A DNA stretch of 31,321 nt from a virus. Taxonomy: Duplodnaviria > Heunggongvirae > Uroviricota > Caudoviricetes. This document shows, in pieces, positions 15,825-23,359 of this stretch. The stretch lies in IMG/VR virus record IMGVR_UViG_2700989487_000010; one strand, written 5' to 3'. How positions within the stretch are numbered: position 1 is the first letter of the stretch; each line of letters begins with the position of its first letter. The notes beneath the pieces are model-generated. The model saw nothing but the letters and a program-made list of their open reading frames with translations. It was not told where the DNA came from and ran no database searches. A program made the translations under genes and the position numbers.

Positions 15825-15878
15825 TGGCCGTTTCTGGCCTGCATGGCATGATTTGCGCTTTTGGACGGGAGATTCCGT

Positions 15879-16478
15879 GTGCTGATTGGCTATGTAAGGG
15901 TATCAACAAATGACCAGAATACAGACCTGCAACGAAACGCTCTTGTTTGTGCAGGATGTGAACAAATATTTGAAGATAAATTAAGCGGGACAAAGACAGA
16001 CCGACCGGGATTAAAACGCGCTTTAAAGCGCCTTCAAAAAGGTGACACGCTGGTTGTCTGGAAACTGGATCGCCTCGGGCGAAGCATGAAACATCTGATT
16101 TCTCTCGTCGGGGAACTACGGGAGCGAGGGATTAATTTTCGCAGTCTGACCGACAGCATAGACACATCTTCTCCAATGGGGCGTTTTTTCTTCCACGTGA
16201 TGGGTGCCCTGGCTGAAATGGAACGTGAATTAATTGTTGAACGTACACTGGCCGGGCTGGCGGCAGCGCGCGCAAGGGGGCGCACAGGCGGACGTCGACC
16301 GAAGCTGACAAAAGAACAGCATGAGCAAATAGCAAGGCTAATCAAAAACGGGCACGACAGAAAACAACTGGCAATAATTTACGGCATTGGCACATCGACG
16401 ATTTATCGTTATCACCCTGTAGGCGATATACAGACTGAAGAAACAACCGGGCAGACTCAGGAAAATGAAAACCGCTAA
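15879..16478 (+). CDS. Serine DNA invertase, Gin/Pin/Cin/Hin family
   Basis: Translation from GTG 15879 begins (M)LIGYVRVSTNDQNTDLQRNAL..., essentially the Gin N-terminus with the catalytic Ser, plus a C-terminal helix-turn-helix; GGGAGA RBS 7 nt upstream. The ORF is also open from TTG 15861. Confidence 0.88.
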   Translation: MLIGYVRVSTNDQNTDLQRNALVCAGCEQIFEDKLSGTKTDRPGLKRALKRLQKGDTLVVWKLDRLGRSMKHLISLVGELRERGINFRSLTDSIDTSSPMGRFFFHVMGALAEMERELIVERTLAGLAAARARGRTGGRRPKLTKEQHEQIARLIKNGHDRKQLAIIYGIGTSTIYRYHPVGDIQTEETTGQTQENENR

Positions 16479-16497
16479 TCTGACCATTAGCGGTTTT
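16468..16497. terminator. Bidirectional rho-independent terminator between convergent invertase and U genes
   Basis: Perfect 12-bp stem aaaaccgctaat / attagcggtttt with a 6-nt loop; A-tract on one side and T-tract on the other; overlaps the invertase stop codon. Confidence 0.6.
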
Positions 16498-16506
16498 TGT
16501 GTTAAA

Positions 16507-17001
16507 TCAGAACAGCCCTTTAACTGAACTGGCCGCGCTGTTAAGAGATGATGTCACCTTATCTTTGAAGCCGGACAGCATATCACTGAACGATGAGGAT
16601 TGCAGGCGCTCCCGCAAATCCTCATCACAGCGTTCAAGGGTCAGTGAAAATTCTATCTTTTTCGCCTTACCGTAGCGATCAAACTCGGAACGGGTCGTAT
16701 TCGTTCCGGTCAGGACATACATGCCGTAAATCTGCCCGACGCCATCAATCAGAGGCCAGGGTCGTCCTGTATACGCCTGCGTGGTCAGCAGCGACAGCGA
16801 TACTTCGCCACCTGTAATTTCAGGATAAAGCACACCAGAAAGAACGATGCGATCATCACCTGCACCGATATACTGCCAGCTTGCTGAACGGTTAACGCGT
16901 TCATTTTTCACATGCCGCCAGCTTTTGTTTTGCTGTAACTGCTGATGCGGCAGCGTGCGCAGCTCAAAAACAAACATGCCGTAGATCATCATCATGGCCA
17001 T
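16507..17001 (-). CDS. U: Tail protein, P2 gpU family
   Basis: 164-aa ORF; translation (MAMMMIYGMFVFEL...LSGVLYPEITGG...) resembles P2 gpU; follows the tape measure gene in transcription order. Confidence 0.8.
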   Translation of the reverse strand: MAMMMIYGMFVFELRTLPHQQLQQNKSWRHVKNERVNRSASWQYIGAGDDRIVLSGVLYPEITGGEVSLSLLTTQAYTGRPWPLIDGVGQIYGMYVLTGTNTTRSEFDRYGKAKKIEFSLTLERCDEDLRERLQSSSFSDMLSGFKDKVTSSLNSAASSVKGLF

Positions 17002-20395: not shown

Positions 20396-20908
20396 TCAGC
20401 CAAGCCCAAGCGCGGAACGGATACGGTCAGGCACAATGTCCTTGCCGTCCTTCCGGTAGATGTGGTTCAACAGGTCGATTTCCCACAGCGGGCGATCGTT
20501 AACGCTCAGCTTGTAGTAGGTGTTTTTGACAGCGTAAGTGTGTGATGTGGCTTCGCCCTGTTTGGCTTCCCCCATATCAATTTCCGTCACACGCCCGCGC
20601 ATCTCGATTTCATACAGATCGCTTTCTGCATCGGTGTAGTATTCACCCGCAAAACGCAGCAGCGTGCCGTCAATCGTGCCGCCATATTTAAGGAACAGCG
20701 CACGAACAGCTCCCCCCATGACAAAACTCGCATCAAGCGCGGAGTCGTCCAGACCGAGATCAATACTTACCGCCCCCATCATGCCACCACCACGATAGCT
20801 GTCGGTTTTGCGCGTCAGTTTGGGCGGCGTGACGGATGTCACTTTACCCACTTCGTTTTCACCATCCACAAACAACGTAAAAAAGCGAAGATGTTTTGGT
20901 ACAGCCAT
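20396..20908 (-). CDS. FII: Tail tube protein, P2 gpFII family
   Basis: 170-aa ORF beginning MAVPKHLRFFTLFVDGENEVGKVTSVTPPKL..., typical of FII/tube proteins; immediately downstream of the sheath gene. Confidence 0.9.
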   Translation of the reverse strand: MAVPKHLRFFTLFVDGENEVGKVTSVTPPKLTRKTDSYRGGGMMGAVSIDLGLDDSALDASFVMGGAVRALFLKYGGTIDGTLLRFAGEYYTDAESDLYEIEMRGRVTEIDMGEAKQGEATSHTYAVKNTYYKLSVNDRPLWEIDLLNHIYRKDGKDIVPDRIRSALGLG

Positions 20909-22092
20909 CAGGCACCTCCCAGCACCGCAAATGCGGGACCAAAGAATTCATCAGTAAACGTCTGGTAAAGCTCCATGTCTTCCAGCGGGGGAACAGGCGT
21001 ATATTTGTAGCGAATACGCACACGTCCCTGACGTAAATTCGTGGTGCCGTTATCCACCACGTCATACCAGCACTCCGCACCAATCAGTTTCCCGGCAGTA
21101 ACCAGCGAATCCAGTTTTGCCCTGATGGCGCTGATAACATCCTTCACGTTCGCAGGTGTCAGTGGACTGTCGATGGTTTCAAACTGCGCTTCCGCAATTG
21201 AATCAGCCAGCACCTGTGCGGTTCGGGTATACACCTCAAAGATGTAGGCGTTCGTTTCCGGTGTGCGGTTGCCCCAGAAGCGGAACCCGTTGCGACGAAT
21301 AATGGTCGTGATTTCTTTGTTGTTGAGGCTGTTGGCATCGCTGTCTTCGGCCTGCAACGACCAGAACACATGCCTGGACATTCCCAGCACATTTTTAACC
21401 GGAACGTTGGACAGCGATTTGTGCCAGCCCTGCTCATGGTCAATGTACGCACGAAGGCCGCACGCATAAGCAGGCGCGGGGAACGTTTCGTTTTTGCCAC
21501 TTTTCGGGTTGTAGGCGATGAAGTCCGGCCATAAGAGCATCACCTCACGTTCGTTGAATTTCTGGCGGTAGGTAATCGCCTCAGCCATCGTGTTACAGCC
21601 GTGACATGAGGCATACACAAACGCGCGCAGTTTACCTGCAATCACGCACAGGGATTTTGTTACAGCCTCCGTGTCCAGCTCCGGCGCGGCCAGAATACGC
21701 GGACGGTATCCGATGCTTTCATCCTGCTCTGCAACAAGCAGCGCATACATCCCCGTATAGCTGCCGTCATCCTCAGAACCACCGATAACCAGTTGATCCT
21801 GCGTCTTTCCGTCTTCTTCTTTGTGTTCAGCCACGCGAACGACGATCACCTTTGTGCTCACCTGGTCTGCGATGGCCTTAAGCGCACGATAAAGCGTCCC
21901 CGTTGTCCCGCATTTTCCCAGCACGTCATTGACGCGGGTCAGCAGTGTGGGCTTATTCAGCGGGAACAGCTTCGCGTCCGCATCATCCGCCGTTGCCACG
22001 ATACCGATAACGCTGGAATCAACATCGTTAATCGCTGTTACCAGGTCGGTATTTTCCGTAACACGGGCACCATGAAAACGAGTTTCACTCAT
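20908..22092 (-). CDS. FI: Tail sheath protein, P2 gpFI family
   Basis: 394-aa ORF; contains motifs recalled from P2 FI (GWHKSLSNV, IRRNGFRFWGNRT, YTPVPPLE); coupled to FII. Confidence 0.9.
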   Translation of the reverse strand: MSETRFHGARVTENTDLVTAINDVDSSVIGIVATADDADAKLFPLNKPTLLTRVNDVLGKCGTTGTLYRALKAIADQVSTKVIVVRVAEHKEEDGKTQDQLVIGGSEDDGSYTGMYALLVAEQDESIGYRPRILAAPELDTEAVTKSLCVIAGKLRAFVYASCHGCNTMAEAITYRQKFNEREVMLLWPDFIAYNPKSGKNETFPAPAYACGLRAYIDHEQGWHKSLSNVPVKNVLGMSRHVFWSLQAEDSDANSLNNKEITTIIRRNGFRFWGNRTPETNAYIFEVYTRTAQVLADSIAEAQFETIDSPLTPANVKDVISAIRAKLDSLVTAGKLIGAECWYDVVDNGTTNLRQGRVRIRYKYTPVPPLEDMELYQTFTDEFFGPAFAVLGGA

Positions 22093-22249
22093 AGCTTCAG
22101 CCCCTTGTATCCGTTAAATGATTCGGCAACAATCATCACCCACCACGCGCGTAATCTCACCCCTGCGCCGTTCTCCCGACCCGGCGACAACAAAAAGCAG
22201 TAACCCCCTCCGCACGCACATGCGACCATGCCGCACAGGGAGGGAACAG

Positions 22250-23359
22250 ATGACCGACACCACCATGCAATTGCTCAGTCAGAGCACAGACCCCGTGAAA
22301 ATGCCGGATTTTGATATTCTCGCGGAGGGTAAAACGCTGTCAGGCGTGGCAGAGCGCCTGATGAGCCTGTCACTGACCGACAACCGGGGATTTGAGGCGG
22401 ACCAGCTCACCATCACGCTGGATGATGCGGATGGTCAGTTGCAGCTACCGCCACGGGGCGCGCGCCTGACGGTTCTCATTGGCTGGAAAGGAGAACCGCT
22501 GACAGAAAAAGGCACTTACATTGTTGATGAAATCGCTCACGAAGGACCGCCGGACAGGCTGACTGTTTCAGCCAGAAGCGCAGATTTTCGGGATGAATTT
22601 AACGTTAAACGTGAGGTGTCCTGGCATGATGTGACCGTTGAGCGTGTGGTATCCGCCATCGCTCATCGGTATGGTCTGAAACCGCAAATCAGCGAAATGC
22701 TGATGGATATCGAAATCGACCACGCCGACCAGACCGAAGAAAGCGACATGTCCTTCCTTACGCGCATGGCGGAAATGCTGGGCGCAATCACCACGGTAAA
22801 AAGCGGTAATCTGTTATTCATCATGCCCGGCGGTGGCGTGAACGCACAGGGCCAGCCGTTGCCATCGTTTGCCATCACACGCAGCAGCGGCGATCGCCAT
22901 CAGTTCCGCATTGCTGACCGCGAGGCGTATACAGGGGTACGCGCTTACTGGCTTGATCTTAATTACGGGAAAAAGAAAAAAGTCAGCGTGAAACGCCGCA
23001 AACCGCCAAAACCCAAAAAGGAGAAAAGCAGCAGCCGTGAAGGTGATTATATGGAAGGCGCAGAAGGCAATGTGTTTGTGTTACGCAAGACTTATCAGAA
23101 CGAGCAGGCAGCAAGACGCGCAGCGGCGGCAAAGTGGCAGCAGCTACAACGCGGAGCCGCATCATTCTCCATCACACTGGCACGCGGACGCGCAGAACTC
23201 TACCCCGAAATGCATGGCACGGTAACAGGATTTAAAAGCGAGATTGATAATCAGGACTGGATTATTGCGAAAGCCGAGCACACCATTGATAACAGTGGCT
23301 TTACCACGCAGCTTGAGCTTGAAGCAAAAATTCCGGAATGGATCGTAGAAACAGAATGA
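22250..23359 (+). CDS. D: Tail protein D (late control gene D), P2 gpD family
   Basis: ATG at 22250 preceded by a GGGAGGG RBS; translation (...MPDFDILAEGKTLSGVAERLMSLSLTDNRGFEADQL...) closely matches recalled P2 gpD, including the central Lys-rich KRRKPPKPKKEK stretch. Confidence 0.85.
   Translation: MTDTTMQLLSQSTDPVKMPDFDILAEGKTLSGVAERLMSLSLTDNRGFEADQLTITLDDADGQLQLPPRGARLTVLIGWKGEPLTEKGTYIVDEIAHEGPPDRLTVSARSADFRDEFNVKREVSWHDVTVERVVSAIAHRYGLKPQISEMLMDIEIDHADQTEESDMSFLTRMAEMLGAITTVKSGNLLFIMPGGGVNAQGQPLPSFAITRSSGDRHQFRIADREAYTGVRAYWLDLNYGKKKKVSVKRRKPPKPKKEKSSSREGDYMEGAEGNVFVLRKTYQNEQAARRAAAAKWQQLQRGAASFSITLARGRAELYPEMHGTVTGFKSEIDNQDWIIAKAEHTIDNSGFTTQLELEAKIPEWIVETE

Follow-up and report, generated by a model that had tools for sequence, protein, structure and literature searches.

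The tail genes and their surroundings

The window, by which we mean the whole 31,321-nucleotide stretch of DNA analysed here, is a P88-type prophage of E. coli, from the genus Xuanwuvirus of the Peduoviridae. It is collinear with P88 over 197-25175 at about 96% identity, except for the fibre tip and one cargo insertion; of its first 24,800 bases, 22,949 can be aligned with P88, for the most part at 95.6-96.4% identity. The early region, from int to A, is not part of the window. The tail genes U, T, E/E', FII and FI are all intact by ORF listing and Pfam and occupy 16507-22092 on the minus strand, separated by a 157-bp gap (22093-22249) from D on the plus strand (Table 1). Searching with P2 proteins by tblastn established that FI, FII, E, T and U keep their P2 order but lie on the minus strand, with D and ogr on the plus strand, in agreement with the original prediction on gene order and strand. 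Matches to the sheath, tube, GpU and GPD families of a P2-like contractile tail module (PF04984/PF17482, PF04985, PF06995 and PF05954) all exceed their cut-offs, and these four proteins are 42-48% identical to those of P2. As had also been claimed, the P2 annotation places FI to D in one rightward operon. Here FI-U and D are not co-directional, and the window phage is a member of the P2-like family without the P2 operon structure.

Table 1. Features of the tail locus and its surroundings (positions are those of the window)
Feature	Position	Strand	Evidence
gix site in tail-fibre gene H, left end of invertible fibre segment	13117-13146		Inverted repeat and TTCNNGTAAACCGAGGTNTT match
gix site shortly before the invertase gene, at right end of invertible fibre segment	15799-15828		Inverted repeat and TTCNNGTAAACCGAGGTNTT match
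Gin/Hin-type serine DNA invertase	15861-16478	+	Pfam Resolvase 1.5e-50 and HTH_7
Bidirectional intrinsic terminator hairpin	16468-16497	both	12-bp perfect stem, flanking T runs on both strands
gpU tail protein	16507-17001	-	Pfam Phage_P2_GpU 1.5e-38; 46% identity to P2 U
gpT tape measure protein	17008-19824	-	Pfam PhageMin_Tail 8.5e-59; 32% identity to P2 T
gpE tail chaperone and E' extension	19802-20340 (E = 19966-20340)	-	35% identity to P2 E; weak Phage_TAC_7 match
gpFII tail tube	20396-20908	-	Pfam Phage_tube 2.1e-45; 42% identity to P2 FII
gpFI tail sheath	20908-22092	-	Pfam Phage_sheath_1, Gp18_domIII_N, sheath_1C; 45% identity to P2 FI
Putative -10 hexamer GATGAT for FI, start expected near 22125	22132-22137	-	Distance and conservation
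Candidate Ogr-type activator dyad TCT-N12-ACA (then ACAACAAAAAGC)	22172-22189, centre 22180.5		Conserved motif
Putative extended -10 TGcGACCAT for D, start expected near 22236	22221-22229	+	Distance and conservation
gpD baseplate hub / late control D protein	22250-23359	+	Pfam Phage_GPD 3e-17; residues 19 to end 48% identical to P2 D
ogr, zinc-finger activator of late genes	24463-24723	+	Pfam Ogr_Delta 5.1e-14; 42% identity to P2 Ogr

Reading of the E sequence suggests a -1 frameshift at the heptamer AAATTTT, after which the E' frame would close at a TGA overlapping the start of T; an equivalent GpE-family ORF is present in the P88 annotation. The longest ORF containing D begins at 22118. A conserved Shine-Dalgarno element (GGGAGGG, 22238-22244) and alignment with relatives, among which the start position is conserved, support the ATG at 22250 as the probable true start, in line with the original reading of the gene.

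At the other end of the block, FI-U is transcribed toward an invertase gene that follows U, as originally described, and the invertase and U genes converge on a terminator hairpin with a folding energy of -17.1 kcal/mol on one strand and -15.7 kcal/mol on the other (z about -6.4). The invertase gene is 93-97% identical at the nucleotide level to gin of Mu and D108, and its translation likely starts at GTG 15879, giving MLIGYVRVS.

Distribution and origin of the inverted layout

The original prediction offered three explanations for the orientation of FI-U: an inversion, a lineage with a different natural arrangement, or an assembly artefact. An 8.2-kb region carrying the layout has uninterrupted matches of 96-98% identity in PhiSM, P884B11, P88 and others, and 1103 of 5426 complete E. 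coli genomes hold it in one collinear piece (counting genomes in which at least 80% of the region is covered at a single place). The cultured phages P88, PhiSM, SEN5 and Kp4871-3 share it, and P88 and PhiSM are viable and plaque-forming. By contrast, a synthetic P2-style junction joining U collinearly to D is spanned in none of the 1416 E. coli genomes that match its halves. A block flipped by misassembly of the window genome would account for the difference from the P2 order and for nothing more. Because the same junctions recur in finished genomes and independently sequenced phages, the alternative junction is absent, and the junctions have no repeats likely to mislead assembly software (inverted matches reach 7 nt at most), we consider this explanation vanishingly improbable and reject it.

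The layout extends well beyond E. coli. A genome scan found about 45 D-related loci in about 25 Enterobacterales genera, and all those with enough flanking sequence read U- T- E- FII- FI- / D+ ogr+; the queries were peptides of the window's D protein, so these loci sample D relatives of roughly at least 65% identity. In P88 and nearly all relatives ogr directly follows D. SEN5 (Senquatrovirus) and Kp4871-3 (Reginaelenavirus) are inverted, and P2, SopEPhi, ST512-KPC3phi13.2, EtG and phiMhaA1 are collinear.

The position of the invertase gene next to the U end of the block suggests another explanation, namely that the neighbouring Gin-type enzyme inverts FI-U, or did so recently, at secondary gix sites on either side. 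The window contains two matches to TTCNNGTAAACCGAGGTNTT, against 0.04 expected, and these, at 13127-13146 and 15799-15818, delimit the tail-fibre segment. Allowing up to 3 mismatches adds no further gix-like site, and both ends of the FI-U block (16478-16510 and 22093-22249) are free of them; the original claim that the FI/D junction lacks such a site thus holds. Nor do the two block junctions share an inverted repeat. Further, only about 6 of the about 45 D-related loci have an invertase, and the opposite orientation is never seen in the 1416 E. coli genomes. An inversion that is private to this phage, recent or invertase-made is therefore rejected as highly improbable.

What stands among the three explanations is a lineage with its own arrangement. 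The original prediction had named sharing of the layout by many related prophages as the mark of an ordinary lineage feature, and such sharing is what we find. We conclude that the orientation of FI-U relative to D is very probably the ordinary arrangement in an entire clade of P2-related phages, among them P88, SEN4/5 and many prophages. Publications on P88, PhiSM and SEN4/5 are silent on it, and literature searches covering Xuanwuvirus, P88, SEN4/5 or inverted P2-like tail sheath genes yielded no relevant description of an inversion. The orientation is thus a feature of a common prophage family and does not point to rearrangement, misassembly or action of the invertase in the window genome. 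For annotation, it cautions against deducing the P2 F-operon structure from the label "P2-like".

Relative to P2, 186, Fels-2 and Mannheimia-type phages, the window arrangement is an inversion of FI-U. In neighbour-joining trees of D and of FI, built without bootstrap and largely congruent, all inverted phages fall in one clade that is sister to the collinear P2/186/Fels-2 group, which points to a single ancient inversion in situ, fixed clade-wide. Alternatively, FI-U could have been imported from another phage and inserted backwards. P2-like phages are mosaic, and module swaps do occur: the window's H and G are 84-91% identical to those of P2, compared with 32-61% elsewhere. However, identity to P2 by tblastn is similar inside the FI-U block (32-46%) and outside it (37-61%), and the flanking Q, P, N, V and D (41-48%) stand as far from P2 as do the genes of the block; moreover, the FI and D trees recover the same clade with similar internal structure. 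We regard module replacement as unlikely.

With inversion in place as the favoured origin, a segment comprising the late promoter P_F and FI-FII-E/E'-T-U would have flipped once, anciently, between the tail-fibre genes and D, and the flipped layout would subsequently have become fixed across these P2 relatives in Enterobacterales. FI-U would then be transcribed leftward, stopping at the terminator that faces the fibre/invertase region, and D, usually with ogr directly after it, would be transcribed rightward.

A candidate bidirectional late promoter between FI and D

The divergent orientation had led to the claim that D needs its own promoter. This is reasonable, and the gap sequence suggests where such a promoter may lie: a conserved Ogr-type dyad with -10-like elements on both sides. 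The form T[GC]T-N12-ACAA[CT] occurs in 38 of 41 distinct gaps, with N12 varying freely. The two -10-like hexamers lie 43.5-48.5 bp from the dyad centre in mirror symmetry and, among 22 relatives less than 85% identical, GAnnAT on the FI side and TG plus nAnnAT on the D side are conserved at fixed distances from the dyad. The dyad centre is 55.5 bp from each predicted start, in keeping with the partial dyad about 55 bp upstream of the start that characterizes Ogr/Delta promoters, and the predicted FI and D starts are 111 bp apart, exactly the spacing of the annotated P2 P_P (3016) and P_O (3127) starts, which share one activator site. PMC3931495 gives TGT-N12-ACA as the P2 consensus and also mentions a shared PP'/PO' site. 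The window's left half-site, TCT, is one mismatch from that consensus, many relatives have a perfect TGT-N12-ACA, and the window's own P/O gap carries the same motif at 3510-3529 (TCT-N12-ACAACAAAAGC).

The motif is weak when taken alone. An exact TGT-N12-ACA search of the window gave 4 matches against 7.2 expected, none of them in the gap, where the dyad came to light only after the left half-site was relaxed to T[GC]T, as suggested by aligning the sequences of relatives. TST-N12-ACAAC occurs 5 times in the window, where 1.8 occurrences are expected, and it is therefore conservation and geometry that carry the argument. Other matches to this form, at 4019, 17730 and 23987, are intragenic and were put down to chance. 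By eye, nothing convincing as a separate late promoter was seen upstream of R (8273-8411).

The -10 hexamers agree with TATAAT at only 3-4 of 6 positions, and a generic sigma-70 scan found no promoter and no -35-like element in the gap, with a total count not above that of shuffled sequence. Such a result is expected if the promoter is activator-dependent, and gives no positive support. The most likely reading of the gap, from its sequence, is one bidirectional, presumably Ogr-dependent late promoter serving both FI-U and D, in which a single dyad-symmetric activator site would drive the leftward and the rightward unit. A less probable arrangement, though one we take seriously, is that D is driven by an ordinary activator-independent promoter and that the dyad serves FI alone or has some other function, since relatives preserve an extended -10 (TGn plus hexamer) ahead of D that could need no activator. 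Its appeal is reduced by the equal distance of the dyad centre from both -10 elements, at the 55.5 bp of P2 late promoters, by the apparent lack of a -35-like element, and by the nature of D, which is a structural late protein.

If the bidirectional promoter is real, the symmetry of the activator site bears on its origin: once the P_F site came to lie beside D, late control of D would have been preserved. We give roughly even odds to the fuller proposal that the FI/D gap forms another bidirectional, Ogr-dependent late promoter, which arose in a single step as the inversion brought the P_F activator site beside D. None of the papers searched, on P88, PhiSM, SEN4/5 and inverted P2-like layouts, describes such a promoter. 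If true, an operon divided by an inversion would in nature have stayed co-regulated owing to a symmetric activator site, and ogr, directly downstream of D in most members, would come under positive feedback. The symmetric site predicts transcript starts near 22125 and 22236 that depend on both the TCT and the ACA half-sites, and in the inverted clade the tolerance of P2-type late promoters to operon rearrangement can be tested on natural material.

Comparison with P88, P2 and invertase-bearing phages

P88 and other Xuanwuvirus members (P884B11, PhiSM, 520873, 500465-2) have the same genes in the same order and orientation from Q to ogr, the invertase included. The window differs from P88 in having another H fibre tip and a 1-kb low-GC cargo gene (PDC-S31/DUF2971) between D and ogr. 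Senquatrovirus (Salmonella phages SEN4/SEN5) and Reginaelenavirus (the Klebsiella phage 3 LV-2017 group) belong to the same clade and share the inverted FI-U and divergent D, but their proteins are only 53-73% identical to those of the window and no invertase adjoins U.

The tail-fibre switches of Mu, with its G segment and Gin, and of P1, with its C segment and Cin, resemble that of the window, in which two gix sites flank alternative H C-termini and fibre-assembly genes. The window's Gin system inverts 13117-15828 only and has no connection with the orientation of FI-U.

The P2 F operon (P_F: FI FII E E' T U D, then ogr) encodes homologous proteins in the same internal order, with the E/E' frameshift and with D followed by ogr. 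In P2, however, the seven genes form one rightward operon in which U and D overlap, whereas in the window FI-U is inverted and D differs from P2 D in having a ribosome-binding site and a predicted promoter of its own, and 18 non-homologous residues at the N terminus. The closest parallel to the gap is P2 P_P/P_O, where a single dyad sits midway between divergent starts 111 bp apart, with weak -10 and no -35 elements, as in our predictions for the window. The inverted clade appears to use this design again between FI and D, in the window with the half-site TCT in place of TGT.

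Tail-gene layout and prophage context

The tail genes of the window have the order and strands that the original prediction described. P2 has FI to D in a single rightward operon in which U overlaps D, whereas here FI to U lie on the minus strand and D on the plus strand. The longest ORF for D runs from 22118; ATG 22250 is backed by a Shine-Dalgarno sequence (GGGAGGG) and by alignment of relatives, and this start gives the 157-bp FI/D gap that had been claimed. GTG 15879 is the probable start of the invertase, and a strong bidirectional terminator hairpin (16468-16497) lies where this gene converges with U. 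Within E, AAATTTT is a predicted -1 frameshift site that leads into the E' frame, which ends at the start of T.

Tail-block features of the window (genes from an ORF map, Pfam and tblastn with P2 proteins; -10 elements predicted)
Feature	Position	Strand	Remarks
Resolvase-family invertase	15861-16478	+	
U	16507-17001	-	
T	17008-19824	-	
E	19966-20340	-	
FII	20396-20908	-	
FI	20908-22092	-	
FI-side predicted -10	22137 to 22132	-	GAnnAT; window GATGAT; predicted start ~22125; FI ATG 22092
D-side predicted -10	22221-22229	+	TG-n-nAnnAT; window TGcGACCAT; predicted start ~22236; D ATG 22250
D	22250-23359	+	

Positions 197-25175 are collinear with, and mostly 95.6-96.4% identical to, Escherichia phage P88 (Peduoviridae, genus Xuanwuvirus), whose deposited annotation has the same invertase(+) / U T E' E FII FI(-) / D(+) arrangement; the window is another P88-like prophage. 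It departs from P88 over some of the H fibre tip and between D and ogr, where 1 kb is inserted. Between these two genes, 23370-24422 holds a low-GC (~35-40%) DUF2971 gene (23482-24318, minus strand, 278 aa); its match is to PDC-S31, a candidate defence family in PADLOC (3.7e-27). P88 lacks this gene and joins D directly to ogr. After ogr, the right end of the window (24800-31321) carries a small ORF, a type II DNA methyltransferase (25447-26238) and then flk, yfcJ, fabB and mnmC of the E. coli chromosome, which place the prophage end near flk. The fibre genes H and G (11857-15441) are 84-91% identical to P2, against 32-61% for all other structural proteins, so they were recently swapped with those of a phage of the P2 type. 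Three 132-nt tandem repeats lie in H (12384-12779).

Distribution of the inverted layout

The layout is already known, being that of P88 and at least three ICTV genera and present in public annotations; we found no remark on it in searchable papers on P88, PhiSM and SEN4/5. The 8.2-kb region 15400-23600 has a single collinear match, at 96-98% identity, in PhiSM, P884B11, P88 and others. At least 80% of it is covered in 13 phage records and, in one place, in 1103 of 5426 complete E. coli genomes. As a control query we joined the T 3' end and U, reverse-complemented, to the D 5' end, forming a synthetic P2-style junction; none of the 1416 E. coli genomes matching its halves spans it. Viable temperate phages with the layout include P88 and PhiSM (PMC6456863; PMC5285337). 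Because the matches are in one piece, the alternative junction has no instance among these genomes and the phages are viable, we reject both an assembly artefact and a layout private to this strain. PMC6456863 gives PhiSM a long non-contractile tail (Siphoviridae); unlike that description, the Citrobacter phage Shae_phiSM record (OR565851.1), 98% identical to the region, encodes a sheath, a tube and a P2-type baseplate.

We then scanned one genome per species with the window's D protein, a query that samples fairly close D relatives only. The scan returned 47 loci in ~25 genera of Enterobacterales (D identity 65-99%), including Salmonella, Citrobacter, Klebsiella, Enterobacter, Kosakonia, Serratia, Erwinia, Pantoea, Brenneria, Pectobacterium, Edwardsiella and Symbiopectobacterium, and all loci with enough flank read U- T- E- FII- FI- / D+ ogr+. 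The original prediction had named sharing by many related prophages as the mark of an ordinary lineage feature, and this is what the 1103 E. coli genomes and ~25 genera display. Two loci, with 98-99% protein identity, come from Firmicutes-labelled assemblies (L004, Vagococcus sp. WN89Y; L045, Planococcaceae MAG UBA3378), where the enterobacterial prophage probably reflects contamination or mis-binning and not a real host. In Trabulsiella odontotermitis (L047, 2213-3376 and 20532), H and I are on the minus strand adjoining the invertase and J, also minus, is 17 kb off; this layout is unlike that of all other loci and marks either another rearrangement or a faulty assembly around the invertase. 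Several near-identical prophage copies occur on one Symbiopectobacterium purcellii chromosome (L008, L009, L012) and in Symbiopectobacterium sp. RP (L023, L024, L048), some of them degraded (e.g. L012, with a disrupted FI/T region).

Origin of the FI-U orientation

The window holds exactly two gix sites (13127-13146 and 15799-15818), which flank the alternative tail-fibre segment. A search of the whole window found none at either end of the FI-U block, in agreement with the earlier observation at the FI/D junction, and no exact inverted match shared by the two FI-U junctions is longer than 7 nt. Only ~6 of the relative loci with enough flank have an invertase gene separating the fibre genes from U; since so few loci of this layout have one, we reject the invertase as its cause.

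Among sampled phages, SEN5 (Senquatrovirus) and Kp4871-3 (Reginaelenavirus) are inverted, and P2 (Peduovirus), SopEPhi (Felsduovirus), ST512-KPC3phi13.2 (Kapieceevirus), EtG (Eganvirus) and phiMhaA1 (Baylorvirus) are collinear; identity to the window's D is at least 62% in inverted phages and at most 54% in collinear ones. In neighbor-joining trees, whether of D or of FI, all inverted phages form one clade, sister to the collinear P2/186/Fels-2/Kapieceevirus phages with Mannheimia as outgroup. The simplest reading is one ancient inversion in situ. Import of a foreign FI-U module in backwards orientation is a less simple account: identity to P2 within the block (FI 45, FII 42, E 35, T 32 and U 46%, by tblastn) resembles that of genes beyond it (Q 47, P 44, N 41, V 47 and D 48%), and the two trees, which carry no support values, are largely congruent.

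A predicted bidirectional late promoter in the FI/D gap

The Ogr-dependent late promoter consensus is TGT-N12-ACA (quoted in PMC3931495). Across 41 distinct FI/D gaps of relatives, 38 contain T[GC]T-N12-ACAA[CT], with the 12-bp spacer free to vary in the alignment. The window's dyad is TCT-N12-ACA (22172-22189, centre 22180.5), with one mismatch to the P2 consensus in its left half-site; the relaxed motif is only mildly enriched in the window (5 matches against 1.8 expected). An ungapped alignment of 22 sequences less than 85% identical, anchored at the dyad, brings out conserved -10-like elements 43.5-48.5 bp from the dyad's centre, mirror-symmetric on both sides. The window's -10 hexamers are weak, and a generic promoter scan of the gap found no promoter. 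The predicted FI and D starts both lie 55.5 bp from the dyad centre, a separation of 111 bp. The relatives also conserve TGAGTTC at -62 to -56 from the centre (predicted FI start/leader), tCACGc at -24 to -19 and a CGCGCGC run just upstream of D's predicted -10 (window ~22119-22125, 22157-22162 and 22211-22219); in the window, CGCGCG runs also adjoin the predicted -10 elements of P and FI.

The window's P/O gap (3446-3600) carries the same dyad, TCT-N12-ACAACAAAAGC (3510-3529), with TAATCT on the P side and TGcCATCAT on the O side at the FI/D-gap distances within 1 bp. ATG 3600, with Shine-Dalgarno GAGGGG, is the probable start of O, in preference to the ORF's first ATG at 3567, which would fall within the predicted -10; the shorter O annotation in P88 fits the later start. 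The window also encodes an Ogr homologue (24463-24723). Together, the conserved dyad, symmetric -10 elements, P2-like geometry, matching P/O gap and Ogr homologue lead us to infer from sequence that the FI/D gap is a bidirectional Ogr-dependent late promoter, driving FI-U leftward and D rightward (D-ogr would be the rightward unit in most relatives). For the D half of this model, an activator-independent extended -10 promoter is a reasonable alternative.

The bidirectional arrangement could plausibly have arisen in one step. Inversion of the late promoter P_F together with FI...U would bring the symmetric activator site beside D, which would then need just a -10 at the right distance. The U/D overlap of collinear phages fits a new D 5' end in inverted ones, as does the failure of D residues 1 to ~18 to align with P2 D.

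This putative second bidirectional late promoter is the sole, mildly new element here. Its predicted geometry is exactly that annotated for P2, in which the P_P (3016) and P_O (3127) starts flank one shared activator-binding site, a TGT-N12-CCA dyad centred at 3071.5; a shared PP'/PO' site is also described in another P2-like phage (quoted in PMC3931495).
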